DNA of 64,000 bases from Rhodanobacteraceae bacterium. Lineage in GTDB: Bacteria; Pseudomonadota; Gammaproteobacteria; Xanthomonadales; Rhodanobacteraceae. Below the pieces are notes generated by a model, which did no database searches, was not told the DNA's origin, and saw only the letters and a list, made by a program, of their open reading frames with translations. The stretch covers positions 1,944 through 65,943 of the forward strand of contig JALUXG010000011.1 of the NCBI GenBank assembly GCA_027019085.1, in the 5' to 3' direction. The translations under genes were made by a program, and so were the position numbers. Below, piece by piece: positions 1 to 58,965 of the stretch; position 1 is the first letter of the stretch; the number at the start of each line of letters is the position of its first letter.

Positions 1-444
1 GACCAGGCCCTGCAGTCCACCGTGTTCACGCTCTGGCCCTCCAACGAATCGCCGCAAGCCCTAAAGACAATCATGTACGTGACGGTCTCCAGTCTGGGAC
101 ACGACGGCCTCGATGACTTCGTCAAGGGCGACATCGAAACTGCCGTGAATCGTGATGCAAAGTCCCGCAAGGCAAATGTGCGGCAGCCTCCGATGCATGT
201 CGGCAAAGTCAGGACCGTGTCCGCGACACGCCGTCTGGTCCATTTTGAGCATGACTCCGGCGATCGCGACGAACTGGTGGAATACATCAAGGGCCCGACG
301 GCCTATTTCATCGTCGCGCTGAGCACCCTCTCCCCTGCCCAGACAGCCCGGTATCGCGGCGCCTTCCAGGCTTTCCTGAAAAGTTTTTCCCCGATGACCG
401 TGCAGTTCGAGAAAGGCGCCAAGCCCCCTTCCTCCAAACACTGA
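1..444 (+). CDS. hypothetical protein, 5'-truncated at window edge
   Basis: The frame is open from base 1 (DQALQST precedes the GTG at 22) to the TGA at 442-444. Third codon positions are GC-rich. No family recognised by eye. Confidence 0.45.
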   Translation, partial: DQALQSTVFTLWPSNESPQALKTIMYVTVSSLGHDGLDDFVKGDIETAVNRDAKSRKANVRQPPMHVGKVRTVSATRRLVHFEHDSGDRDELVEYIKGPTAYFIVALSTLSPAQTARYRGAFQAFLKSFSPMTVQFEKGAKPPSSKH

Positions 445-514
445 CCCCTGCCATGTGCTCTGGACGGTTCGCTGACGAGGTGCGTCACCTGCGGACTGCC
501 TCTACACTCGCGTC

Positions 515-1546
515 ATGCTGAAGATCGACACCCACAGCCACATCCTGCCGCGGGACTGGCCCAACCTGTCAGAAAAATACGCCGAACCGCGTTTTCCGGT
601 GATGACGCACTCGGGCGGATACCACCGCATCTACCGTGGCGGCAAGTTCTTTCGCCAGGTGTGGCCCTCGGCCTTCGACATGGAAACGCGCATCGCCGAC
701 TACGCCAGACACGGCGTGGACGTTCAGGTGATTTCCACCGTACCGGTGCTGTTCTCCTACTGGGCGCGCGGCAGCCAGGCGCTGGAACTGCACGCCTTTC
801 TCAATGACCACTGCGCCGCATTGTGTCGCGACCACCCACGCCATGTGATCGGCATCGGCACGGTGCCGCTGCAGTCTCCCAACCTCGCCGTCCGCGAGCT
901 GGAGCGATGCATGGACCAGCTCAATCTGGCCGGCGTGCAGATCGGTTCGCATTGCAATGACTGGAATCTCGACGCGCCGGAGCTGTTTCCCTTCTTCGAG
1001 GCTGCCTCCGACCTGGGCGCCGCGATCATGGTGCATCCGTGGGACATGATGGGTCGCGACACCATGCCCGATTACTGGCTTCCGTGGCTGGTGGGCATGC
1101 CCGCCGAACAGTCGCGCGCGGCCTGCAGCCTGATCTTCGGCGGGGTACTGGAGCGCCTGCCGAAGCTTCGCGTGATGTTCGCGCATGGCGGCGGCAGCTT
1201 TCCGTTCACCATCGGACGCATCGAGCACGGCTTCAACGTGCGTCCGGACCTGGTCGCCAAACGCAATGCGCGCAATCCGCGCGAGTACTTCCCCCGCCTG
1301 TATTTCGATTCCTGCGTGCATGACCCGCAGGCGCTGGATTACCTGCTGCAGGTGGTCGGGCACGACCGCGTCATGCTGGGCACCGACTACCCCTTCCCGC
1401 TGGGCGAACAGTCACCCGGCTCGGGCATCGAGGCGCTGGATCTGCATGCCGAATCGCGCGCACGCCTGATGCACGGCACCGCGCTGGAATGGTTGGGCCT
1501 GTCATTGAACCGGTTCAAGACCGAAACGCCAGAGGCGCAGGCATGA
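515..1546 (+). CDS. amidohydrolase-2 family decarboxylase, 2-amino-3-carboxymuconate-6-semialdehyde decarboxylase (ACMSD)-like
   Basis: 343 aa. N-terminal IDTHSHILP metal motif and a VHPWD...HGGG...DYPFPLGE pattern typical of ACMSD-type amidohydrolases. Lies next to kynureninase. Confidence 0.8.
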   Translation: MLKIDTHSHILPRDWPNLSEKYAEPRFPVMTHSGGYHRIYRGGKFFRQVWPSAFDMETRIADYARHGVDVQVISTVPVLFSYWARGSQALELHAFLNDHCAALCRDHPRHVIGIGTVPLQSPNLAVRELERCMDQLNLAGVQIGSHCNDWNLDAPELFPFFEAASDLGAAIMVHPWDMMGRDTMPDYWLPWLVGMPAEQSRAACSLIFGGVLERLPKLRVMFAHGGGSFPFTIGRIEHGFNVRPDLVAKRNARNPREYFPRLYFDSCVHDPQALDYLLQVVGHDRVMLGTDYPFPLGEQSPGSGIEALDLHAESRARLMHGTALEWLGLSLNRFKTETPEAQA

Positions 1547-1583
1547 CACGCAAATCCGGGCACCCTTTCTTCGGACCCCTCCC

Positions 1584-2867
1584 ATGAACAATCCATACGA
1601 CGCCTCCCCCGCATGGGCCGAACAGGCCGATCGCGATGACCCGCTGCGCGCCTATCGCGAGCAATTCCTGATTCCGCCGCATGGCGATGGCCTGACGCTC
1701 TATTTCTGCGGCAATTCGCTGGGCCTGCAGGCGCGCGGCGTGCGCGAGGCGATCAACGATGAGCTGGATTACTGGGGCGAACTGGGCGTGGAGGGTCACT
1801 TCAAGGGCCGACTGCCGTGGATGGACTACCACGAATACGTCCGCGAGCACCTGTCCGAACTGGTGGGCGCCTCGATGAGCGAAGTGGTGGCCATGAACAC
1901 GCTCAGCGTGAACCTGCACCTGATGATGGTCAGCTTCTACCGGCCCACCCGCGAACGCCACAAGATCCTGATCGAAGCCGGCGCCTTCCCGAGCGACCGC
2001 TATGCCGTGGCATCGCAGATCCGCTTTCATGGCCACGATCCGGACCAGGCGCTGATCGAACTGGAAGCCGACGAGCCCGACGGTACCGTATCCATGCAGG
2101 CGATCGAGCACGTCCTGCACGAACACGGCGATGATATCGCTCTGGTGATGTGGCCCGGCGTTCAGTACCGCACCGGACAGGCCTTCGACCTGGCGGCCAT
2201 CACGCGCATCGCACATGCGCGCGGATGCATGGTCGGATTCGACCTGGCACATGCCGTCGGCAACATTTCGCTTTCATTGCATGACAGCGGCGCAGATTTC
2301 GCGGTGTGGTGCCACTACAAATACCTCAACGGCGGCCCCGGCGCCGTGGGCGGTGCATTCGTGCATGAGCGTCACGCGCGCACCAATCGCCCGCGTCTTG
2401 CCGGATGGTGGGGACACGACAAGGCCACCCGCTTCCGGATGGATCCGCATTTCGACCCGACGCCGGGCGCGGAAGGCTGGCAATTGTCCAATCCGCCGAT
2501 ACTGGCACTGGTGCCCCTGCGTATTTCCCTGCAACTGTTTCATCAGGCAGGCATGCAGGCCCTGCGCGCCAAGTCCGAGCGCCTCACCGGCTACCTGGAA
2601 TGGCTGGTCGAACACGAACTTGCCGATACGCTCGAGGTACTCACACCACGCGAGAGCGCGCGCAGAGGCGCCCAGCTTTCCCTGCGGGTACACGGCGGGC
2701 GCGATCGCGGGCGTGCCCTGTTCGAGCATCTGACCGCGCATGGCGTGATCGGCGACTGGCGTGAACCGGACGTGATCCGTGTCGCCCCGGTGCCCATGTA
2801 CAACTGCTACCGCGACTGCCTGGGTTTCGTGCATGCCGTGCAGGCCTGGAAAGGCTCCGGCAACTGA
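1584..2867 (+). CDS. kynU: kynureninase
   Basis: 427 aa. Shows the LYFCGNSLGLQ, HYKYLNGGPGA and PDVIRVAPVPMYN motifs of PLP-dependent kynureninases. Confidence 0.9.
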   Translation: MNNPYDASPAWAEQADRDDPLRAYREQFLIPPHGDGLTLYFCGNSLGLQARGVREAINDELDYWGELGVEGHFKGRLPWMDYHEYVREHLSELVGASMSEVVAMNTLSVNLHLMMVSFYRPTRERHKILIEAGAFPSDRYAVASQIRFHGHDPDQALIELEADEPDGTVSMQAIEHVLHEHGDDIALVMWPGVQYRTGQAFDLAAITRIAHARGCMVGFDLAHAVGNISLSLHDSGADFAVWCHYKYLNGGPGAVGGAFVHERHARTNRPRLAGWWGHDKATRFRMDPHFDPTPGAEGWQLSNPPILALVPLRISLQLFHQAGMQALRAKSERLTGYLEWLVEHELADTLEVLTPRESARRGAQLSLRVHGGRDRGRALFEHLTAHGVIGDWREPDVIRVAPVPMYNCYRDCLGFVHAVQAWKGSGN

Positions 2868-3332
2868 TCAGATAGTCCGGTTGAGCATCCACAAGGCGGC
2901 ATTGAGCACACCGGCGAATGCCACCCATGCCGCGTAGGGCACCATCAGCACGCCGGCCAGACGATCGATCCGCCAGAACGAAACGGCGGTGGCCACGATC
3001 AACGACAGCAGCACGACGATCTCCAGCAGCGCCAGATCCGGCCTGCGCAGCCCGAAGAACAGCCACGACCATCCCGCATTGAACACCAGCTGGACCAGCC
3101 ACAAGCCTATGGGCCGGTTCCTGCCGCCACGCAGCCAGGCCCGCCCCGCCGCCACACCCATCATTGCGAACAGCATCGACCACACCGGAGCAAACACCCA
3201 GTCGGGAGGATTGAATGGCGGTTTGGCCAGCTGCGCATACCAGAGGCCGGGAGCAAACCGGCTGCCGATGAAGCCGGCCATGAAGGCGAGCAGAAGAAAT
3301 CCGACGAAGGTCCCCGAGCGGCGTATGCTCAT
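2868..3332 (-). CDS. tspO: tryptophan-rich sensory protein TspO/MBR family
   Basis: Track ORF 2868..3875 trimmed to the internal ATG at 3332 (MSIRRSG...), giving 154 aa. Five hydrophobic helices and the Trp-rich PPDWVFAPVWS and NAGWSWLFF motifs. Confidence 0.85.
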   Translation of the reverse strand: MSIRRSGTFVGFLLLAFMAGFIGSRFAPGLWYAQLAKPPFNPPDWVFAPVWSMLFAMMGVAAGRAWLRGGRNRPIGLWLVQLVFNAGWSWLFFGLRRPDLALLEIVVLLSLIVATAVSFWRIDRLAGVLMVPYAAWVAFAGVLNAALWMLNRTI

Positions 3333-3630
3333 TTTTCTCAACCCATACACGAACGTTGAGGATGTTCTGATTCCGTCTACGCATTGTGTCTGCACGCAGA
3401 TGCATCGGCGCAGGCCATCTGGCTGCCTTTCCAAACGGTGTACCAGGTAGCCACCTGCAGGTTCAACGGCATCCATCCTGTGGATCCGGATGTCAGGGGG
3501 ATGTCGGGAAAGCCCACACGCAAGCCACCCCGCCAGGCATCTTCTGCATGGGGACACATGCTCGCGAACGATGCTATGGTGATCCGGCAACAACGTCCCC
3601 TCCCCCACACCCGCACAACGAGATCCAGCC

Positions 3631-5406
3631 ATGCGCAAAGCTTTCCTCGCATTCGCCGTGTTCGTGTCGTGCGCGGCGATGTCGGTCGCGTTCGCCTCCA
3701 GCACACCACAGAACAGGCATTCGATTCCCCAGCAGGCACTGGATGCCACCGCCCCACCCACCACCCGCGCCCAGCTCGCCGCGGCAAGGCCGGTACTGGC
3801 CCGACATGCCATGGTCGTCACAGCGCAGCATCTGGCCACCCGCGTTGGCGTGGATATCCTCAAGCAGGGCGGCAACGCCGTGGACGCGGCGGTAGCCGTC
3901 GGCTACGCGCTGGCCGTGGTGCATCCGTGCTGCGGCAATATCGGCGGCGGCGGATTCATGGTGCTGCACCTGGCCAAGGGCAAGACCGTGTTCCTGGACT
4001 TTCGCGAAAAGGCCCCGCTGAAGGCCACGCCGACCATTTTCCAGGACGCCCAGGGCAATGTGGTCAAGGGCCGCAGCACGCACACCTACCTTGGCGTGGG
4101 CGTCCCGGGCACGGTGATGGGCCTGAACGCGGCGCTGAAGAAGTACGGCACGATGAGTCTGAAACAGGTCATGGCCCCGGCCATCAAGCTGGCGCGTGAC
4201 GGCTTCATACTGCGGCAGGGCGATGTCAACATTTTGCACACGCGCAGCAAGGATTTCGCGCAGTACCCGAATGTCGCGAAGATCTTCCTCAACCATGGCA
4301 AGCCCTATCAGGCCGGCGACCGTCTGGTGCAACCGCAACTGGCACACACCCTGGAGCTGATTGCCAAGGGCGGCACGCGCGCCTTCTACCGGGGCTCGAT
4401 CGCCCGGGCGGTGGTCAAGGCCAGCGAGAATAACGGCGGCCTGCTGAGCATGAAGGATTTCGCCGACTACACGGTGCAATGGAGCAAGCCGGTCCAGTGC
4501 GAATACCGCGGTTTCACCATCATGTCCTCGCCGCCGCCCAGCTCCGGCGGCACGACCATCTGCGAGATCCTGCAGATCATCAAGCCCTACCCGATGTCGC
4601 GCTGGGGATACGGTTCGGTCAAGGCCATTCACTACCTGGTGGAAGCCGAGCGCCGCGCCTTCGCTGACCGCAATACCTATCTCGGCGACCCGGCGTTCGT
4701 GCACAACCCGATCGCGAAGCTGCTCTCGCCGGCACATGCTGCAAAACTTCGCACCACCATCGATCCGGACAAGGCCACGCCATCCAGTCAGATCAAGGGC
4801 AGCCTGGGACCGGTCGAGGGCATGCACACCACGCAGTTCTCCATCGTCGACCCCAAGGGCAACGCGGTCAGCATCACCTACACCATCAATTACCTTTACG
4901 GCCTTGGGCAGATCGCCGGCAATACCGGATTCTTCCTCAACAACGAGATGGACGACTTCACCTCCAAGCCGGGCGTGCCCAACTCCTTCGGCCTGGTGCA
5001 GGGCAAGGTCAACCAGGTCGAGCCGGGCAAGCGGCCGCTGAGCTCCATGTCGCCCAGCATCGTGCTGCACCAGGGCAAGCTGTTCATGGTGACCGGCAGC
5101 CCAGGTGGCTCGACCATCATCTCGACCACGCTGGAGAGCATGCTCAACGTGATCGACTTCGGCATGAACATGCAGCAGTCGGTCGATGCGCCGCGGGTGC
5201 ACAACCAGTGGTATCCGGATCTCGTGTTTGTCGAGCCGGGGCTGCTGACCGACACGACCCGCGAGGCGCTGGAAAAGATGGGCTACCGTTTCAAGGTGGT
5301 GCGTTCATGGGGCGCGGACGAGGCCATCCTGGTCAACCCGCACACCGGTTTGCTGGAAGGTGCCAACGACCGGCGCCGCCCCGCCGGCATGGCCGCCGGA
5401 TTCTGA
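3631..5406 (+). CDS. ggt: gamma-glutamyltranspeptidase
   Basis: 591 aa with a signal peptide. GGGGFMV motif, the autoprocessing-site region GMHTTQFSIVD, and GSPGGSTIISTTL. Confidence 0.92.
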   Translation: MRKAFLAFAVFVSCAAMSVAFASSTPQNRHSIPQQALDATAPPTTRAQLAAARPVLARHAMVVTAQHLATRVGVDILKQGGNAVDAAVAVGYALAVVHPCCGNIGGGGFMVLHLAKGKTVFLDFREKAPLKATPTIFQDAQGNVVKGRSTHTYLGVGVPGTVMGLNAALKKYGTMSLKQVMAPAIKLARDGFILRQGDVNILHTRSKDFAQYPNVAKIFLNHGKPYQAGDRLVQPQLAHTLELIAKGGTRAFYRGSIARAVVKASENNGGLLSMKDFADYTVQWSKPVQCEYRGFTIMSSPPPSSGGTTICEILQIIKPYPMSRWGYGSVKAIHYLVEAERRAFADRNTYLGDPAFVHNPIAKLLSPAHAAKLRTTIDPDKATPSSQIKGSLGPVEGMHTTQFSIVDPKGNAVSITYTINYLYGLGQIAGNTGFFLNNEMDDFTSKPGVPNSFGLVQGKVNQVEPGKRPLSSMSPSIVLHQGKLFMVTGSPGGSTIISTTLESMLNVIDFGMNMQQSVDAPRVHNQWYPDLVFVEPGLLTDTTREALEKMGYRFKVVRSWGADEAILVNPHTGLLEGANDRRRPAGMAAGF

Positions 5407-9408: not shown

Positions 9409-10884
9409 GTGATCACGCATGCCAAGCCTGTCGTGGCCTTCGACCTGGTGATTTTCGGCGGTACCGGGGACTTGGCCATGCGAAAGCTGTTGCCGGCCAT
9501 GTTCCGGCGCTTTCTCGATGGCCAGTTGCCTGCACCATGCCGTTTGATCGGTGTGGCGCGCGAGCAGCAAAGCACCGACACCTACCGCCAGAGGGTGAGC
9601 GAAGCGTTGCGCAAGGCCGTGAAGGAGGACGATGCCATCGCACGCATCGACGCCTTTCTCGGCATGGTCAGCTACCACCCGCTCGATGCCACCAGCGACA
9701 CCGGCTGGGAGGACTTCGCCCAGGACCTCAAGTCGATCGAAGACCATGTGCGGGTGTTCTACCTGTCAACCAGCCCCGGCATCTTCGTCGACATCTGCGA
9801 ACGCCTGCGTCAGCACGGCCTGAATGGCGAAGGCTCCCGCGTGGTCATCGAGAAACCGATCGGTCACGATCTGGCCAGTGCATGCGAGATCAACGACGCG
9901 GTCGGAGCGGTGTTTGCGGAAAACCAGATCTTCCGCATCGACCATTACCTGGGCAAGGAAACGGTGCAGAACCTGCTGGCCCTGCGCTTTGCCAATGTCC
10001 TGTTCGAACCGCTGTGGAATGCCGCACACATCGACCATGTGCAGATCACCGTGGCCGAAACAGTCGGTGTGGAACAGCGCGGACCGTACTACGACCATGC
10101 TGGCGCCCTGCGCGACATGGTGCAGAACCACCTGCTGCAATTGCTGTGCATGGTGGCCATGGAGCCGCCGGCCTCATTGAATGCGGACACCGTGCGCGAC
10201 GAAAAGCTCAAGGTGCTGCACGCGCTCAAGACCATCGATGCCGGCAATGCCGGGCAAGTGACGGTGCGTGGCCAGTATCGCGCCGGCTCGGCCAACGGCC
10301 AGTCGGTGCCTGGCTATCTGGAAGACCTGGGCAGCCCCGCTTCGGACACCGAAACCTTCGTCGCCCTGAAGGCCCAGGTGTGCAACTGGCGGTGGGCCGG
10401 CGTGCCGTTCTATCTGCGCACCGGCAAACGCATGCCCCATCGGGTCTCGGAGATCATCATCCACTTCCGTGACATCCCCTACTCCATCTTCGCCGAAAGC
10501 AGCGGACGGATCAGCGCCAACAAGCTGGTCCTGCGCCTGCAGCCCGATGAGGGCGTGAAACTGTGGATGATGGCCAAATATCCCGGCCCCGGTGGCCTGC
10601 GCCTGCAATCGGTGCCGCTGGACATGAGCTTTGCCGAAGCCTTCGGGGTGCAGCAACCCGATGCCTACGAGCGTCTGCTGCTGGACGTGGTGCGCGGCAA
10701 CCTGACCCTGTTCATGCGCCGCGATGAAGTCGAAGCCGCCTGGAAATGGATCGACCCGATCCTCGCCGCGTGGGCGGAGAGTCCCGACAGCCCGCGCTCC
10801 TACACCGCAGGCACGTGGGGGCCGAGCGCCTCGGTCGCACTGATCGAACGCGATGGTCGTACCTGGCATGACGACGACCATTGA
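9409..10884 (+). CDS. zwf: glucose-6-phosphate 1-dehydrogenase
   Basis: GTG at 9409 is preceded by AAGGA; the track ORF starts at TTG 9394. IFGGTGDLA, RIDHYLGKE and DHVQITVAE motifs. Confidence 0.9.
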   Translation: MITHAKPVVAFDLVIFGGTGDLAMRKLLPAMFRRFLDGQLPAPCRLIGVAREQQSTDTYRQRVSEALRKAVKEDDAIARIDAFLGMVSYHPLDATSDTGWEDFAQDLKSIEDHVRVFYLSTSPGIFVDICERLRQHGLNGEGSRVVIEKPIGHDLASACEINDAVGAVFAENQIFRIDHYLGKETVQNLLALRFANVLFEPLWNAAHIDHVQITVAETVGVEQRGPYYDHAGALRDMVQNHLLQLLCMVAMEPPASLNADTVRDEKLKVLHALKTIDAGNAGQVTVRGQYRAGSANGQSVPGYLEDLGSPASDTETFVALKAQVCNWRWAGVPFYLRTGKRMPHRVSEIIIHFRDIPYSIFAESSGRISANKLVLRLQPDEGVKLWMMAKYPGPGGLRLQSVPLDMSFAEAFGVQQPDAYERLLLDVVRGNLTLFMRRDEVEAAWKWIDPILAAWAESPDSPRSYTAGTWGPSASVALIERDGRTWHDDDH

Positions 10885-24598: not shown

Positions 24599-26209
24599 TC
24601 AGGAATCCAGGGGACGCACCGACTTCGGCACTACCCGTGCATCGAAATCACGCTTGATCTTCTGTACCAGGGGGTCGTCCTCGATCGCCTGCTCGGCCGC
24701 CTGCTGAATGTGCCTGCGCTGCTGTTCGGCACGCGCGGCGGGGGTGTCGTCAACGCCATCTTCACTGCCGATGAAACGCAAGCGCACCTTGCGCCCCAGA
24801 GCCTTGCTGATGTGTTCGGCCATCTGGCTGGTCATCGGTTCGACAGCCAGCTCGGCATGACTGCGATCGAGCAGCAGTTCCAGTGTGTCATGCTGCAAAG
24901 AATGTAGCCGTGCATTGATGGCCAATGCACGCATCGGGCCGCGCAGTTGCGCACGCTCAATGAGAGTTTCCCAGTCGGGCAAGCCGTCATTGTCGCCTGC
25001 GTTGCCTGCCTGCGGAGGTGGAGATGGCGGCATGGGCGCAGGATTGCTGTCCCCGGACTTCGCGGGCGCAGGCGCCGGGACAGGGCGCGTCTCCGGCGAC
25101 TGCCCGGCAGTTCCGTCATCGGATGACTGCGGCGCAAAGGCCAGCATGCGCAACAGCACCATCTCGAAACCGGTACGCGCATCGGGCGCCAGGTTGATAT
25201 CGGCCCGTCCGTGCGTCGCGAACTGGTAGTACAGCTGCACGTCCTGCGGGTCCAGGCGTTTTGCGAGCTGATCGAGCGCCGGCGCATCATCGCCCTCGTC
25301 CGCCGGCAACTGCGGCACCAGCTGGCGCAGCTGGATGCGGTGCAGCAGATCCGCGGTTTCGTTGAGCACACCGCCGAAATCAGGCGAGAAGGCGGCAATT
25401 TCGCCACTGCGCTCCATCAGCGCCCTGCCGTCGCCGTCGGCAAGCGCCTGGACCAGGCCCAGCACCCGGCTGCGTTCGACGCTGCCGAGCATCGCGCGCA
25501 CGTCCGCGGCCTTGAGCACACCGCTGCCATAGGCCAGTGCCTGATCGAGCAACGAGAGGCCATCACGCATCGAGCCATCCGCAGCGCGTGCCAGCTCGCC
25601 CAGGCCCGGGGCCTCGAAAGCAACGCCCTCGGCCTCCAGAATGCGCTGCATCTGCGCGCGTATCTGCTCGGGCAGCAGTCGTTTCAGGTTGAACTTCAGG
25701 CAGCGAGAAAGCACCGTCACCGGAAGTTTCTGCGGATCGGTGGTCGCAAGCAGGAACTTCACGTGCGGCGGTGGCTCCTCCAGGGTCTTCAACAGCGCGT
25801 TGAAGGCGCTCCTGGAGAGCATGTGCACCTCGTCGACCAGGTACACCTTGTAGCGACCGCGGGTGGGCGCGTACTGCGCATTCTCGATCACCTCGCGCAC
25901 GTCATCGACACCGGTATTGCTGGCTGCGTCGATTTCCAGCAGATCCACGAACCGCCCTTCGTCCACCGCGGTGCACACGGCGCATTCGCCGCACGGGTCG
26001 GCCGAAGTGCCCTGCTCGCAGTTCAGGGACTTGGCGAAAATGCGCGCAATGGTGGTCTTGCCGACCCCGCGGGTGCCGGTGAACAGGTAGGCATGATGGG
26101 TGCGTCCGGTGTCGAGTGCGTTGGACAGTGCACGGACCACGTGCTCCTGCCCCACCAGCTCGTAGAAGCGCCGCGGCCGCCACTTGCGTGCCAGTACCTG
26201 ATACGTCAT
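24599..26209 (-). CDS. dnaX: DNA polymerase III subunit gamma/tau
   Basis: Trimmed to the ATG at 26209 (MTYQVLARKWRP). Walker A GTRGVGKTT, zinc module CGECAVC, and DEVHML. Confidence 0.92.
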   Translation of the reverse strand: MTYQVLARKWRPRRFYELVGQEHVVRALSNALDTGRTHHAYLFTGTRGVGKTTIARIFAKSLNCEQGTSADPCGECAVCTAVDEGRFVDLLEIDAASNTGVDDVREVIENAQYAPTRGRYKVYLVDEVHMLSRSAFNALLKTLEEPPPHVKFLLATTDPQKLPVTVLSRCLKFNLKRLLPEQIRAQMQRILEAEGVAFEAPGLGELARAADGSMRDGLSLLDQALAYGSGVLKAADVRAMLGSVERSRVLGLVQALADGDGRALMERSGEIAAFSPDFGGVLNETADLLHRIQLRQLVPQLPADEGDDAPALDQLAKRLDPQDVQLYYQFATHGRADINLAPDARTGFEMVLLRMLAFAPQSSDDGTAGQSPETRPVPAPAPAKSGDSNPAPMPPSPPPQAGNAGDNDGLPDWETLIERAQLRGPMRALAINARLHSLQHDTLELLLDRSHAELAVEPMTSQMAEHISKALGRKVRLRFIGSEDGVDDTPAARAEQQRRHIQQAAEQAIEDDPLVQKIKRDFDARVVPKSVRPLDS

Positions 26210-26318
26210 GCCCGGAACCTGCTCGGATAGGGGGACGATTGTGCCAAGTCGCGGCGTCCAAGTCAGCAGCGCAGCGCAAAAGACCTGCACGGATACCGCA
26301 AAAAGACGCCCCGGAAAT

Positions 26319-26432
26319 GGTGGCGGCCCTGCCAGCCACACCCCGGCACCCGAATCCTCCGCTACCGTTGCTTCCTTCCGGACCTGGCGGGGTTTGCGAA
26401 GTATCGTCGCGGGGGGACCGACAGGGCCACCA
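26319..26432 (-). ncRNA. ffs: signal recognition particle RNA (4.5S, small bacterial type)
   Basis: The minus strand reads GGTGGCCCTGTCGG...CCAGGTCCGGAAGGAAGCAAC...GGCTGGCAGGGCCGCCACC. The GGTCCGGAAGGAAGCA core matches the E. coli 4.5S domain IV and the termini pair. The ends are approximate. Confidence 0.8.
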
Positions 26433-26538
26433 TGGACGGCATCACGTTTTCCTGCGCGTGCTGCTCCATGAGGAGCACGTCACGCTGCAAGCCGACCGGT
26501 AGCCGAGGATCAAACGCAACCGGTCATGTCAGATCTCG

Positions 26539-26918
26539 TGGCGGAGAGGGAGGGATGACTCCGCGCTGCGCGCTGCGCCCCTTCGGGGCCGTCGCTGCGC
26601 GACGTTCCGATGCACAAAGCGCATCGGTCGAACCCGTCCATCTGATCCCGAGGGTTCGACTCCCTCCCTTCGATTCCGATCCAGACTCCCGGGTTTTCAC
26701 ATCCCTCGAAAACCACGGCTTGCTTGTATGGCGGAGAGGGAGGGATGACTCCGCGCTGCGCGCTGCGCCCCTTCGGGGCCGTCGCTGCGCGACGTTCCGA
26801 TGCACAAAGCGCATCGGTCGAACCCGTCCATCTGATCCCGAGGGTTCGACTCCCTCCCTTCGATTCCGATCCAGACTCCCGGGTTTTCACATCCCTCGAA
26901 AACCACGGCTTGCTTGTA
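26539..26918 (-). repeat. two identical 190-bp tandem units abutting tRNA-Ser(CGA), each carrying an 18-nt copy of the tRNA 3' end
   Basis: Units 26539-26728 and 26729-26918 are identical by eye. Each starts on the plus strand with TGGCGGAGAGGGAGGGAT, which is the reverse complement of the tRNA end ATCCCTCCCTCTCCGCCA. Confidence 0.9.
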
Positions 26919-27009
26919 TGGCGGAGAGGGAGGGATTCGAACCCTCGATACGGGAGACCCGTATACCGGATTTCGAATCCGGCGCATTCGACCACTCTGC
27001 CACCTCTCC
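26919..27009 (-). tRNA. tRNA-Ser(CGA)
   Basis: Class II tRNA. GGAGAGG acceptor, anticodon arm CCGGA-TTCGAAA-TCCGG, long variable arm, T-arm GAGGG-TTCGAAT-CCCTC, encoded CCA. Confidence 0.93.
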
Positions 27010-27067
27010 ACGGTCGCACGCGCTGTTTCCAGCCAAACTGTTCCCAGTCAAACCGCGCGAGCCGGCA

Positions 27068-27097
27068 ATGATACGTCGCAGCGTGCCGCGCGGGCAA
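27068..27097 (-). promoter_or_regulatory. candidate sigma70 promoter for tRNA-Ser(CGA)
   Basis: Minus strand TTGCCC-N18-TATCAT, about 60 nt upstream of the tRNA 5' end. Confidence 0.4.
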
Positions 27098-31777: not shown

Positions 31778-33121
31778 ATGCAAACCGAAAGTCACACCCC
31801 ATCCACAACTACCTGTCGAGCGACCCACGACCCCCTGCGCATCCTGCGCGCGGTGTTGGCCGGGCCGGGGCGCTTCGTCCGCCCGTGGTACCTGGCCTAC
31901 CTGCTGCTGGGCGTGGTCACCGCCGGCCTGGTGCCGGTGCTGTTCCCGCTGATCGTGTCCGACCGCGCGCACAGCGTGGCCGCCGTGGCCTACGTCATGG
32001 GCGTGTACAACCTCGGTCTGCTGACTTCGCCGCTGTGGGGGCTGCTGGCCGAGCGCTGGCGTCTTTACCGCAGCCTGTTCTTCCTGGCTTTCGTGCTGGG
32101 TGCCGCGGCACTGGCAATCTTTCCCCTGATGCAGCACATGCCTGGCTGGCTGGCCGCTGCCTTCGTGCTCGGCGCGGGCTCGGCCGGCGCCGGCACCCTG
32201 GCCTCGCTGTTCGTCGTCGATTTCGCTCCACAGGAGGAATGGGAACCTCGCATCGGCATGCTGCAGGGCTTCAATGGCACCGGCCAGGTCGTAGGCCTGC
32301 TGCTGGCCGGCCTGTTCGCACACGGGCAGTTCGATGCAGGACTGTGGATATGCGCGATCCTGCTGGCCGTGGCCGTCGGCGTGGGCGGCATCGGCCTGCC
32401 CGGCACGCACGCCGGCACTTCCGTTGCCGATCGCGTACACCGTTTGCTGGACGTGCGCGCATTGGCCGCGTTCCCACGCATCAACCTGCTTTCGGGCCCG
32501 GCATGGCATTTCAGCCATTTCAATCTGCACGGCCTGCGCCATGCCGGTGGGATGTTCGGCACGCCGTTCGGACGTTTCCTGCTGTCCTGGTTCATGCTGG
32601 CGCTGGGCGTGGCCGGGTTCTTCACCTACTTCCCGATCCTGCTGGCCCGGGGCTACGACCTGAACACGCACGCCTCCTCGCTGCTGTACGCCGCCGGCGC
32701 CGGCGTCGGCATCGCGCTGTTCGTGCTGGCCAGCCGCGCCTGCGCACGCTACGGTTCGGCGCGGGTGTACCAGTGGGGCCTTGCCGTGCGCATCGTCGGC
32801 TTCGTGCTGCTGCTGGCCTCTACCGCACTCCCGGCGCACCTGCGGTTGAGCGCATCGGCCGTCGGGTTCCTGCTCATCGTCATGGCCTGGCCGGTGCTCA
32901 GCGTCGCCGGAACCGGCCTGGCCGCGCACCTTGCGACCTTCAGCGAAGGGGCTGCCATGGGCCTGTTCAACGCCAGCCTGGCCCTGGCCACCGTGATCGG
33001 CGCCTTCGCCAGCGGCCCCCTGATCGGCGCCTTCGGCTACCCCGCCATCCTGTGGATGGGGGTGGCAGGGATCGGACTGGCCAGCGTGCTGGGGGCGGGA
33101 CTGGGCAAGAAGCGCGATTGA
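31778..33121 (+). CDS. MFS transporter
   Basis: 447 aa with about 12 hydrophobic helices. GGGAGGA Shine-Dalgarno upstream. Confidence 0.85.
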   Translation: MQTESHTPSTTTCRATHDPLRILRAVLAGPGRFVRPWYLAYLLLGVVTAGLVPVLFPLIVSDRAHSVAAVAYVMGVYNLGLLTSPLWGLLAERWRLYRSLFFLAFVLGAAALAIFPLMQHMPGWLAAAFVLGAGSAGAGTLASLFVVDFAPQEEWEPRIGMLQGFNGTGQVVGLLLAGLFAHGQFDAGLWICAILLAVAVGVGGIGLPGTHAGTSVADRVHRLLDVRALAAFPRINLLSGPAWHFSHFNLHGLRHAGGMFGTPFGRFLLSWFMLALGVAGFFTYFPILLARGYDLNTHASSLLYAAGAGVGIALFVLASRACARYGSARVYQWGLAVRIVGFVLLLASTALPAHLRLSASAVGFLLIVMAWPVLSVAGTGLAAHLATFSEGAAMGLFNASLALATVIGAFASGPLIGAFGYPAILWMGVAGIGLASVLGAGLGKKRD

Positions 33122-33393
33122 TTTCGAGGGTTCGCATCCCTCCCCCCCCCCGAAACGAAAACGCCACAGCAAGCTGCAGCGTTCGGATGCCTGGGCATCA
33201 GGGTATGGCGGAGAGGGAGGGATGATTCGGCGCCATGCGCCTCACCCCTGCGGGGCCGTCGCTGCGCGACGTTCCGATGCGCAGGGCGCATCGGTCGAAC
33301 CTCATGTCTTGATTTCGAGGGTTCGCACCCCTCCCCCCGAAAACGAAAACGCCACAGCAAGCTGCAGCGTTCGGATGCCTGGGCATCAGGGTA
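33118..33393 (-). repeat. tRNA-Ser(GGA)-linked copy of the same repeat family: spacer / 18-nt tRNA-end copy / 85-nt core / spacer
   Basis: 33118-33205 and 33309-33393 are duplicates that differ by C10 vs C6 and A3 vs A4 runs. 33206-33223 is TGGCGGAGAGGGAGGGAT. The core 33224-33308 is homologous to 26557-26640. Confidence 0.9.
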
Positions 33394-33486
33394 TGGCGGA
33401 GAGGGAGGGATTCGAACCCTCGATACGGGTATAAGCCGTATACACACTTTCCAGGCGTGCTCCTTAAGCCACTCGGACACCTCTCC
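33394..33486 (-). tRNA. tRNA-Ser(GGA)
   Basis: GGAGAGG acceptor, anticodon arm CACGC-CTGGAAA-GTGTG, long variable arm. The 3' half is identical to that of tRNA-Ser(CGA), with encoded CCA. Confidence 0.93.
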
Positions 33487-58453: not shown

Positions 58454-58965
58454 CCCACCAGGCACGGTTACTCATGCCCTTGTGGGAGCGCCGGAAGGCG
58501 CGATTGTCGGCAACGCGGCAAAACCCCGATGTTCGCGGCACAGGCCCGACACATGTACTCCGGCATCCCCAGCCACCGGCATCGGCGCAGGAACCCCGAA
58601 AGCGTGCCCGAAGCCAATATCCGCGATGTATACAGGCCATGCGGTGAATCCGAATATCGCGATCGCACCACGGGCATTCCCTTCGGTCACGGCTGCCACC
58701 GCTCCCACCAGGCGCGGCTACGCTAGAAACACCCCTGTGGGAGCGCCGGAAGGCGCGATTGTCGGCAACGCGACAAAACCCCGATGTTCGCGGCACAGGC
58801 CCGACACATGTACTCCGGCATCCCCAGCCACCGGCATCGGCGCAGGAACCCCGAAAGCGTGCCCGAAGCCAATATCCGCGATGCATACAGGCCATGCGGT
58901 GAATCCGAATATCGCGATCGCACCACGGGCATTCCCTTCGGTCACGGCTGCCACCGCACCACAGG
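58454..58965. repeat. two tandem copies of a ~250-bp unit, each containing a REP-like GTGG+palindrome
   Basis: Copies at 58454-58703 and 58704-58958. From TGTGGGAGCG (58481 / 58736) onward, about 220 nt differ at 2 positions. REP-like TGTGGGAGCGCCGGAAGGCGCGATTG at 58481-58506 and 58736-58761. Confidence 0.9.

Follow-up and report, generated by a model that had tools for sequence, protein, structure and literature searches.

The closest described relatives of the elements analyzed here are the tRNA-linked repeats (TLRs) of enterobacteria (Egan & Landy 1978 and Rudd 1999, both as summarized in PMC8144298). These repeats are defined by a 3′ end of 18–19 bp that is identical to the 3′ end of the upstream stable-RNA gene (PMC8144298). 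In the E. coli annotation, the member rttR is an ncRNA of 171 nt whose start lies 7 nt past tyrV and whose end coincides with the repeat's CCA. According to PMC8144298, the only function ever claimed for RtT, a role in the stringent response, has been withdrawn by its authors. The same paper describes RrA, RrB and RrF, 5S-linked TLRs that lie between the terminators T1 and T2 of rrnA, rrnB and rrnD and are made by terminator read-through and subsequent processing (PMC8144298). For RtT itself, covariation and an extra helix framed by tandem GA have been described using R-scape/CaCoFold (PMC8250186; bioRxiv 10.1101/2020.02.04.933952).

The window analyzed here, a stretch of 64,000 nucleotides from a Rhodanobacteraceae bacterium, contains three full copies of a related element and a fourth, truncated one (33118-33147). 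All lie on the minus strand, in two arrays behind tRNA-Ser genes (Table 1). The coordinates and shared blocks of the three full copies, as given in a preliminary description made from the sequence, proved correct on re-reading. However, the repeated unit is not the 130 nt given there but the tRNA trailer plus the element, with a length of 190 bp in array 1 and 188 bp in array 2. Array 1 (26539-26936) holds 2.1 copies with 100% identity (TRF) and array 2 about 1.4 units, although these tandem copy numbers may be wrong because the contig is a short-read metagenome contig and an independent assembly breaks inside the array. The truncated unit of array 2 consists of a second spacer copy (33148-33205) followed by ∼30 nt from the start of an element and abuts the stop codon of a convergent MFS gene. 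Each array lies on the same strand as its host tRNA, with the element 59 nt (CGA) or 58 nt (GGA) downstream, and operon membership was judged from this position alone. Between the two loci, the elements are 80% identical (105/131) and the spacers 43%. The neighborhood of the loci comprises dnaX, ffs and genes for a DUF6165 protein, a heptosyltransferase, an MFS transporter and a PP2C phosphatase.

Table 1. Positions of the tRNA-linked arrays, their parts and nearby features in the window.
Feature	Position	Strand	Evidence
Promoter-like site upstream of tRNA-Ser(CGA), the only one near array 1	27068-27097	−	consensus scan alone
tRNA-Ser(CGA), host gene of array 1	26919-27009	−	ARAGORN; Rfam tRNA 63.5 bits
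Unit 1 trailer/spacer (59 nt), immediately 3′ of the tRNA CCA	26860-26918	−	sequence; part of 190-bp tandem unit
TLR/RtT element, proximal, array 1	26729-26859	−	RF00391 46.9 bits, model 1-130
Trailer/spacer, second copy, array 1	26670-26728	−	100% identical tandem unit
TLR/RtT element, distal, array 1 (reported finding)	26539-26669	−	RF00391 46.9 bits; fold −72.7 kcal/mol, z −3.95
Antisense copy of tRNA T-arm, 20/21 nt complementary to the gene	26649-26669	−	inverted repeats, 95%; helix coordinates
71-nt core (H2, H3, H4, H5)	26557-26627	−	direct reading; same split in Rfam consensus and E. coli
H2: CCGAUGCGC-UUU-GUGCAUCGG, one G-U pair	26607-26627	−	fold; outer pairs covary in family
H3: CGUCGC-GCA-GCGACG, most conserved hairpin of the family	26590-26604	−	core pattern; fold; family alignment
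H4: CCCC-GAA-GGGG	26578-26588	−	fold; CCC-GMA-GGG in all relatives
H5: GCGC-GCA-GCGC (26570-26573 / 26563-26566)	26563-26573	−	MFE fold, family alignment; 4/5 pairs covary
Exact copy of the last 18 nt of tRNA-Ser, AUCCCUCCCUCUCCGCCA	26539-26556	−	5 exact sites vs 0 expected; suffix analysis
SRP (4.5S) RNA gene, 115 nt downstream of array 1, same strand	26327-26423	−	RF00169 73.7 bits
tRNA-Ser(GGA), host gene of array 2	33394-33486	−	ARAGORN; Rfam tRNA 53.3 bits
Trailer/spacer of array 2, containing a terminator-like hairpin (33347-33372)	33336-33393	−	sequence, terminator scan
TLR/RtT element, array 2	33206-33335	−	RF00391 60.8 bits; fold −69.4 kcal/mol, z −4.53
Truncated second unit, array 2	33118-33205	−	direct repeats; sequence; ORF, Pfam

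A covariance-model search with Rfam RF00391 (RtT RNA) matched 33206-33349 (E 2.1e-09) as well as 26539-26682 and 26729-26872, all on the minus strand. With a gathering score of 45 bits, all three full copies reach the cut-off, those of locus 1 by a margin of only 1.9 bits, and in each of them the model is covered from position 1 to 130 of 130 without truncation. The four tyrT copies of E. coli score 133-138 bits with the same layout as in the window, and the model also finds relatives behind Pro, Lys, Arg and Ser tRNAs. Based on this full-length match and the copy of the 18-nt tRNA 3′ end in tandem trailer-plus-element units, we assign the window elements with high confidence to the TLR/RtT type, the same kind as the 178-bp repeats found in the tyrT operon of E. 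coli. The preliminary description had recognized no known RNA family; this was wrong, given the RF00391 match at the gathering score and the presence of the TLR hallmark. Only the T-arm and the acceptor 3′ strand of the element are tRNA-like, and neither ARAGORN nor the Rfam tRNA model called it as a functional tRNA or tmRNA in the window scan. A full-text literature search with the core sequence found no paper.

Read in the tRNA sense, the element consists of three parts: an antisense copy of the T-arm, a sense copy of the tRNA 3′ end split by the ∼70-nt core, and the intact last 18 nt of the tRNA. The closing helix and H1 both represent pairing of the antisense with the sense T-arm copies, with their 5′ strands (26661-26668 and 26652-26659, respectively) coming from the antisense copy. 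The split occurs between GGGUUCGA (26628-26635) and AUCC. In all three full copies, identity to the tRNA-Ser 3′ end extends over exactly 18 nt (ATCCCTCCCTCTCCGCCA), including the CCA, and AUCCCUCCCUCUCCGCCA, which begins at T-loop position 59, recurs at 26729-26746 and 33206-33223. The reverse complement of this end, TGGCGGAGAGGGAGGGAT, is found at five sites in the window compared with 0.00 expected, namely the two tRNA genes and positions 26539, 26729 and 33206. That the final 18 nt of each copy are the tRNA's own 3′ end had been omitted from the preliminary description. The same anatomy holds for the family: exactly 18 or 19 nt are shared with the tRNA 3′ end in 71 of 89 tRNA-adjacent relatives and more in none, and at the compared loci the core boundary falls at T-loop position 58|59 in every case.

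The TLR core motif, AA-CGYYGC..GCRRCG-G-CCCGMAGGG followed by a variable hairpin, is present in the window copies, and the core pattern occurs three times compared with 0.00 expected. In the tRNA sense, none of 200 shuffles equaled the RNAfold energies of the distal array-1 element and the array-2 element (Table 1), while the opposite strand folds more poorly (z −2.97 and −1.75). RNAfold reproduced the closing helix and H1 to H4 as drawn in the preliminary description, although H1 and H2 overlap there by one C, and it left the proposed single-stranded tail ...UCUCCGCCA unpaired. A hairpin is also formed at H5, but in locus 1 the register with an AGC loop did not hold up; the MFE fold and the family alignment back GCGC-GCA-GCGC instead. 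We then relied on a comparison set of 120 genome and 18 metagenome loci. Across 48 relatives, the six-helix model paired 81.8% of all cells, compared with about 40% when the partners were slid. Changes on both sides occur at 16 pairs, a count that is informative only outside H3 and H4, which were fixed by the search pattern; covariation is strong in H2 and H5, neither of which is tRNA-derived. The outermost closing pair follows the sequence variants of the tRNA (GC 15, AU 5, UA 2, mismatch 0). Because both strands are copied from the tRNA T-arm, part of the covariation seen in the closing helix and H1 is trivial. An RNA made on the tRNA strand had previously been favored because a change in H2 reads as G-U in this sense and as A-C in the other, an argument that family-wide is reduced to a weak bias (40-46 G-U vs. 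25 A-C cells). The long-range pairs of the Rfam model (UUCG:CGAA and neighbors) are 58-87% paired with zero changes on both sides. We set this helix aside in favor of the local H4, since the strictly conserved CCCGMAGGG is also kept in relatives that lack the UUCG partner.

By analogy to E. coli, we propose that RNA polymerase would continue past tRNA-Ser from the tRNA promoter and that the tRNA 3′-processing machinery would take the element's copy of the tRNA 3′ end for the end of a tRNA. Endonucleolytic cleavage just past the element, followed by exonucleolytic trimming, would release an RNA of about 185 nt that comprises trailer and element, is compact and resistant to nucleases, and has a CCA terminus. 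The arrays could expand and contract by unequal recombination among the units and the tRNA 3′ end, which would explain why units are 100% identical, why the last copy is truncated and why relatives have from one to five or more units (five in Pantoea sp. C3). In array 1, a consensus scan indicated a single promoter-like site, located upstream of the tRNA, and no terminator-like site before the end of ffs. A terminator-like hairpin separates the tRNA from the element in array 2, where the element would accordingly be made only by read-through; this order of terminator and element is also that of E. coli RrB. A stable processed RNA on the tRNA strand is partly supported, as it would be consistent with the E. 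coli type member, the orientation, the CCA end and the better fold in the tRNA sense. We lean towards the view that this organism produces such a discrete RNA from tRNA-Ser read-through and processes it to the CCA end. Taken together, a read-through spacer RNA that is trimmed to CCA like a tRNA and amplified by unequal recombination appears the most likely explanation, and we regard the combination of TLR/RtT identity, which is the chief component, with this read-through, processing and recombination account as probable.

The distribution of the core in other genomes bears on an alternative: the element could chiefly be a repeat at the DNA level, its H2-H5 core being a present or former non-autonomous mobile or duplicative cassette of the REP/MITE type and any RNA incidental. 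Its targets would be the 3′ ends of stable-RNA genes, in or beside them, and A-rich terminator regions. This explanation is compatible with the preferred one. At the compared loci, the core is found behind tRNA-Tyr, Arg, Pro, Lys and Ser. Overall, at least eight different tRNA species precede it, and in each case its flanks match the local tRNA; such flanks could equally result from gene conversion with the adjacent tRNA. One tRNA-Tyr gene (L111) is interrupted by the core exactly at position 58|59, and one locus (L126) is a hybrid of T-arm flanks and an RrB-like hairpin. About 80 further copies lie away from any tRNA in Pseudomonas, Stenotrophomonas, Alcanivorax, Pectobacterium and other genera, with several copies per genome, sometimes in tandem and flanked by an A-rich direct repeat. 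Moreover, the element in its entirety duplicates the T-arm in inverted form, which also gives a hairpin in single-stranded DNA. In the preliminary description, scattering at non-tRNA sites had been named as a point against an RNA; it is borne out in part in other genomes, where the core hairpins recur in dispersed RrB-like repeats, but not in this window, where copies sit only at the two tRNA-Ser genes. Also against a mobile repeat, core variants group by tRNA type across genera, a pattern that looks like vertical descent over long periods at fixed loci, the elements always point in the same direction as the upstream tRNA, and the window annotation contains no transposase, RAYT, integrase or island genes beside either locus. 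We regard a repeat chiefly at the DNA level as unlikely.

A wider reading, which we put forward as doubtful, sees in the H2-H3-H4-H5 core a single modular cassette of ancient origin. Instead of being inherited passively as a spacer, it would have spread both within gammaproteobacterial genomes and from one to another. The core is found in several settings: within a copy of the tRNA 3′ end split at 58|59 (the window and E. coli RtT), inside an otherwise complete tRNA-Tyr (L111), after 5S rRNA (RrB), and as independent units present in multiple copies between genes of Pseudomonas, Stenotrophomonas and Pectobacterium that carry consensus CsrA/RsmA GGA hairpins. RrB-like dispersed repeats of Pseudomonas with GGA-loop hairpins have this core in common. 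When the dispersed RrB-like elements and the RrB region of E. coli were compared with Rfam, no family was hit at the gathering score or at E ≤ 1. If the cassette reading were true, the TLRs would form the branch anchored at tRNAs within a far larger family, for the most part undescribed, either of mobile or duplicative elements or of protein-binding RNAs, and the fixed 18-nt boundary would mark a mechanism of insertion or copying.

It has been proposed for the 5S-linked RrA, RrB and RrF that they act as sponges, and the window element could by the same token titrate CsrA/RsmA or Hfq. RrB binds CsrA and Hfq in vitro (PMC8144298) and shares the H3-H4 core and the overall layout with the window element; its dispersed relatives carry GGA in two hairpin loops (40/43 and 33/43 copies). 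In the window copies, however, the loops read UUU/CCU in H2, GCA in H3, GAA/GCA in H4 and GCA/AUG in H5, and GGA is confined to the linkers. Likewise, 19 of 19 TLRs from E. coli tRNA operons score below 0.01 in a predictor of CsrA binders (PMC8144298). A sponge function of the window element thus appears highly improbable.

Two further candidates can be dismissed. Integrases that target tRNA genes classically leave direct repeats of the tRNA 3′ end around foreign DNA, and the T-loop is a known crossover site. The 18-nt direct repeats resemble this signature and could be attL/attR cores left by integrative elements once present in the tRNA-Ser genes, but such an att scar is effectively refuted by conservation of the core behind many tRNAs from E. 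coli to this organism. Inter-repeat DNA of just 172 nt and the lack of integrase or island genes flanking either locus also speak against it. Equally improbable is a small protein like the protamine-like tpr annotated within E. coli rttR: an ORF in the tpr frame is indeed open through trailer and element at both loci (69 and 62 codons), but about 65 open codons are expected by chance roughly once in five cases at 65% G+C (estimated from base composition), substitutions between the loci compensate hairpins and are not synonymous, and the frame is not conserved in the family since stem and loop lengths differ by non-multiples of three.

For annotation, our preferred assignment means that the three copies should be labeled RtT/TLR elements and not a new RNA. 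It extends the range of the TLR family past the Enterobacterales to a G+C-rich uncultured bacterium and to tRNA-Ser genes, with the defining anatomy retained, that is, the 18-nt copy of the tRNA end, the 58|59 split, the antisense T-arm and the core hairpins. The present locus opens no new question on its own. The family-wide anatomy and the link to RrB-like elements with GGA loops provide a sharper explanandum and a broader comparative set for experiments.

Compared with known systems, the window element resembles REP/BIME sequences as a G+C-rich intergenic hairpin structure whose core relatives are dispersed in multiple copies in Pseudomonas and other genera. Unlike REP/BIME, the window copies are strictly tRNA-linked, in one orientation and about 130 nt long, with a fixed order of several hairpins, a tRNA-derived end and no RAYT. 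The sRNA sponge 3′ETS-leuZ, as PMC8144298 describes it, comes from the 3′ external transcribed spacer of a tRNA and is likewise a by-product of a tRNA operon released by processing. It differs in being unrelated in sequence and structure, unrepeated and without a copy of the tRNA 3′ end, and it pairs with RyhB and RybB. RrA, RrB and RrF share with the window copies the H3-G-H4 core, the order of hairpins, a 3′ tail copied from the upstream stable RNA and, in the case of array 2, the placement after a first terminator, whereas RrB has GGA-loop hairpins, binds CsrA and Hfq and lacks T-arm-derived arms.

The similarity to the tRNA-linked TLRs is closer. Other TLRs of E. coli and enterobacteria (Rudd 1999, as reported in PMC8144298) share the 18-19-nt identity and the core hairpins, with from one to several units at each locus. 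A genome scan placed those of other Enterobacterales behind tRNA-Arg, Lys and Pro; many at Arg and Lys are short forms without H1 and H2, in which the closing strand lies directly against AA-H3, whereas the window copies are long forms. Several features distinguish the window from E. coli RtT/rttR: the host is tRNA-Ser (CGA, GGA) and not tRNA-Tyr, H2 is a 9-bp hairpin and not short and interrupted, the H1 loop measures 13-16 nt where that of E. coli has about 5, H4 is 4 bp long rather than 3, units span 188-190 bp compared with 178 bp, the genome has about 65% G+C, and array 1 is located between the tRNA and ffs. In both organisms, a full-length match to the model is found in tandem trailer-plus-element units that follow directly after the tRNA on the same strand. 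Each element ends with the last 18-19 nt of the tRNA including CCA, starts with an antisense T-arm and carries a core inserted at T-loop position 58|59 with homologous H3, H4 and H5. Even the two H5 subtypes of E. coli are both present here, with locus 1 resembling the distal copies and locus 2 the copy in the tyrT-tyrV spacer.

All three copies of the ~130-nt element matched the RtT RNA family (RF00391) when the whole window was scanned against Rfam at gathering thresholds (cut-off for RF00391, 45 bits). The matches reached 60.8, 46.9, and 46.9 bits and span the full model (positions 1-130; E-values 2.1e-09 and 5.9e-06). The copies also show every sequence-level feature by which both RF00391 and the tRNA-linked repeats (TLRs) are defined, which contradicts the preliminary description, where no known RNA family had been recognized. 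The element is a further member of the RtT/TLR family, in a host setting that is new: tRNA-Ser, a G+C-rich genome, and a lineage beyond the enterics. As cited in PMC8144298, TLRs were first described by Egan and Landy (1978) and catalogued by Rudd (1999); E. coli K-12 carries 22 copies at ten loci (PMC8144298). An early link between RtT and the stringent response was, according to the same source, retracted by its own authors. The four copies of the E. coli K-12 tyrT locus score 133-138 bits, compared with 46.9-60.8 bits for the window copies, and the annotated E. coli ncRNA rttR extends from 7 nt past the tyrV CCA to the CCA closing the first repeat.

Two other families gave matches below their gathering scores. 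Aggregatibacter sRNA 22 (RF02902) weakly matched the core (27.6 bits, E 0.057), a hint that this Pasteurellaceae sRNA may be a TLR relative. The matches to RF04351 (plastid psbI-rps4 3'UTR; 57.9 and 41.8 bits) were rejected as the antisense of the tRNA-Ser genes.

Positions of the features in the window and at loci of relatives
Feature	Position	Strand	Remark
tRNA-Ser(CGA)	26919-27009	minus	
Array 1	26539-26936		3' of tRNA-Ser(CGA)
Array 1 elements	26539-26669, 26729-26859	minus	
tRNA-Ser(GGA)	33394-33486	minus	
Array 2 element	33206-33335	minus	3' of tRNA-Ser(GGA)
Array 2 truncated unit	33118-33205		
Promoter-like site	27097-27068	minus	upstream of tRNA-Ser(CGA)
Terminator-like site	26300-26288	minus	just past ffs
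SRP RNA gene ffs (4.5S)	26327-26423	minus	115 nt past last array 1 unit, ahead of dnaX
dnaX ORF	24599-26341	minus	colinear with tRNA-Ser(CGA), two TLR units, and ffs
ORFs in tpr frame	26539-26918, 33118-33393	minus	
RF02902 matches	33222-33305, 26548-26633	minus	
RF04351 matches	26922-26974, 33397-33442	plus	
Unrelated tandem repeat	58477-58957		
L092, dispersed units	~300-3350	minus	three copies
L023, dispersed unit	4487-4585		
L091, L108, L002, L110, metagenome L125-L142			further dispersed examples
L126, tRNA-Ser(UGA)-linked units	9440-9800		metagenome contig
L111, Kosakonia oryziphila	~50-205		NZ_FMBC01000054.1
L031, Serratia sp. AKBS12	~1240-1400		
L124, E. coli RrB	430-520		between rrnB T1 and T2

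The coordinates of the three copies and their two exactly shared blocks, as given in the preliminary description, were correct on sequence check. Array 1 consists of 2.1 copies of a 190-bp unit without mismatches, each unit comprising a 59-nt trailer (the spacer behind the tRNA CCA) and a 131-nt element. In array 2, a single 188-bp unit (58-nt trailer and 130-nt element) is followed by a second trailer copy and the initial ~30 nt of a further element, and this truncated unit extends as far as the stop codon of an MFS transporter gene in convergent orientation. Between the two loci, the elements are 80% identical but the trailers only 43%, indicating conservation of the element but not of the spacer. 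The core does not occur elsewhere in the 64-kb window. Exact tandem copies, a truncated last unit, and relatives with arrays of up to five units are consistent with a model in which arrays would expand and contract by unequal recombination between units. An unrelated tandem repeat (255 bp, 1.9 copies, 98% matches) is also present in the window.

In tRNA sense, each copy ends with AUCCCUCCCUCUCCGCCA, identical to the 3'-terminal 18 nt of either tRNA-Ser gene. Five sites in the window carry this 18-mer, where none is expected, and the 3' ends of the nine remaining tRNA genes of the window are not duplicated. In its 5' part, the element carries the tRNA T-arm in antisense, GGGAGGGAGUCGAACCCUCG, one base off the reverse complement of the gene and corresponding to inverted repeats I4-I7 (95%). 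After a loop, the 5' half of the T-arm follows in sense orientation (GGGUUCGA), then a 71-nt core, and finally the 18-mer. Taking out the core restores the tRNA's own 3' end, GGGUUCGA joined to AUCCCUCCCUCUCCGCCA, so that the core lies between positions 58 and 59 of the T-loop. In the predicted closing helix and H1, the antisense T-arm pairs with the two parts of the interrupted sense copy. The E. coli tRNA-Tyr repeats show the same split layout (AAGGUUCGA, core, AUCCUUCCCCCACCACCA), as does the Rfam consensus.

The minimum free energy structures of the two versions in tRNA sense (-72.7 and -69.4 kcal/mol) contain the closing helix and H1 to H5, as drawn in the preliminary description, and leave a 9-nt unpaired 3' tail. 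None of 200 shuffled sequences folds as well (z-scores -3.95 and -4.53), and the opposite strand folds more weakly (-2.97 and -1.75). Two small drawing errors need correction: H1 and H2 had been given one C in common, and for H5 of locus 1 both the computed fold and the family alignment favor the register GCGC-GCA-GCGC over GCGC-AGC-GCGC.

Pairs of this model were counted in a MAFFT alignment of 48 long-form relatives. Here, 81.8% of the cells were paired, compared with about 40% when the partners were slid by one to three columns, and 16 pairs showed two-sided changes. For the closing helix and H1, in which the tRNA is the source of either strand, part of this signal is trivial. In 22 short forms, the outermost closing pair tracks the tRNA sequence variants perfectly (GC 15, AU 5, UA 2). 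Strong covariation is seen in H2 and H5, neither of which derives from the tRNA, with GC 20, CG 15, and UA 9 at the outer H2 pair and two-sided changes in four of the five H5 pairs. H3 and H4 are invariant, but both were fixed by the search pattern. For the long-range pairs that the Rfam structure has in addition, the pair count in the alignment gave no two-sided change, and relatives lacking the 5' partner conserve the 3' partner, CCCGMAGGG, just as well. Both observations favor H4 as a local hairpin over the long-range helix. Published R-scape/CaCoFold analyses of RtT found covariation, one extra helix framed by tandem GA, and one unsupported Rfam helix (PMC8250186; bioRxiv 10.1101/2020.02.04.933952); the extra helix fits H5 with its GA...GA flanks in locus 2 and the enteric copies.

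Relatives were collected with the H3-H4 pattern from one representative genome per species (at least 120 loci and at least 174 matches) and with the CCCC/GGGG variant of the window from metagenomes (18 additional loci). They split into a tRNA-linked class and a class away from tRNAs (at least about 80 matches). Among the matches listed, the first class follows tRNA-Tyr(GUA), Arg(ACG), Arg(CCG), Pro(UGG), Pro(CGG), Lys(UUU), and Ser genes of Enterobacterales, Marinobacterium (tRNA-Arg(CCG)), and two metagenome contigs (tRNA-Ser); its copies reach the gathering score of RF00391, the long forms with 55-101 bits. Identity with the tRNA 3' end covers exactly 18 nt in 34 and exactly 19 nt in 37 of the 89 tRNA-adjacent copies listed and exceeds 19 nt in none, so the 58|59 boundary is constant across the family. 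Copies in an Alteromonadaceae MAG (L018) and Marinobacterium profundum (L098) end in a tRNA-type 3' end, with no same-strand tRNA called upstream within the block. Core variants among the listed matches cluster by tRNA type across genera, a pattern suggesting that they have long resided at fixed loci. In Kosakonia oryziphila, tRNA-Tyr positions 1-58 are joined directly to a TLR core followed by ATCCTTCCCCCACCACCA (87.3 bits for RtT in Rfam). This is either a tRNA gene split within the T-loop or the outcome of a deletion between the tRNA and its downstream repeat. One Serratia TLR departs from the rule of copying the adjacent upstream gene: it lies directly 3' of tRNA-Ser(GCU) and carries the tRNA-Arg-type end ATCCTCCTGGATGCACCA in place of the Ser end, probably reflecting the layout of the ser-arg tRNA operon.

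Units of the second class are ~75 nt long, intergenic, multi-copy, sometimes tandem, and flanked by A-rich direct repeats. The matches listed come from Pseudomonas, Ectopseudomonas, Stutzerimonas, Halopseudomonas, Stenotrophomonas, Alcanivorax, Alishewanella, Pectobacterium, and Brenneria, and an Rfam search of these units found no family covering them. In order, they consist of a hairpin whose loop is of the CGGGA type, RA, H3, G, CCCGMAGGG, a GGA-loop hairpin, and an A-rich tail, the same layout as in RrB, the 5S-linked TLR of E. coli rrnB. Convergent genes flank 22 of 38 units, judged by a crude test. GGA occurs in the two hairpin loops of 40 and 33 of the 43 cleanly parsed copies listed, a CsrA/RsmA-type motif. 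In two units linked to tRNA-Ser(UGA) on a metagenome contig of 45% G+C (L126), the arms derive from the T-arm, one hairpin is RrB-like (AAAAAUGCC-GGGA-GCAUUUUU), and H5 has a GGA loop. These units score under the gathering threshold of RF00391, and this hybrid bridges both classes. While the tRNA-Ser element itself belongs to a known family, the wider cassette family is the part deserving follow-up.

A DNA-level cassette that spreads is a less probable reading, and one compatible with a processed RNA. A tpr-like peptide encoded by the unit is unlikely: an ORF in the E. coli tpr frame is open across trailer and element at both loci (69 and 62 codons), but this is probably a by-product of high G+C. 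A role as CsrA or Hfq sponge is also unlikely for the window copies, which lack GGA loops. The repeats are not an integrase att scar, given the conserved core and the housekeeping neighbors.

The preliminary observation is confirmed; its reading as an RNA by-product of tRNA read-through is partly right, and the claim of novelty falls. Our analysis established family membership, anatomy, hairpin conservation, and tandem organization. The original strand argument, G-U wobbles in tRNA sense against A-C mismatches in the other, reflects a weak bias (40-46 G-U versus 25 A-C cells); the CCA end and an orientation that always follows that of the tRNA are the stronger arguments for an RNA from the tRNA strand. 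By analogy to E. coli, read-through from the tRNA promoter would transcribe the element, and the tRNA 3'-end machinery could release it because it ends in the tRNA's own 18 nt; the same argument has been put forward for RrB and RNase E (PMC8144298). Around array 1 (26288-27097), a consensus scan found a sole promoter-like site upstream of the tRNA and a sole terminator-like site past ffs. This suggests that tRNA-Ser(CGA), both repeats, and 4.5S RNA may share a single transcript. At array 2, a terminator-like hairpin lies between tRNA-Ser(GGA) and the element, and E. coli RrB is likewise placed after a terminator, rrnB T1.
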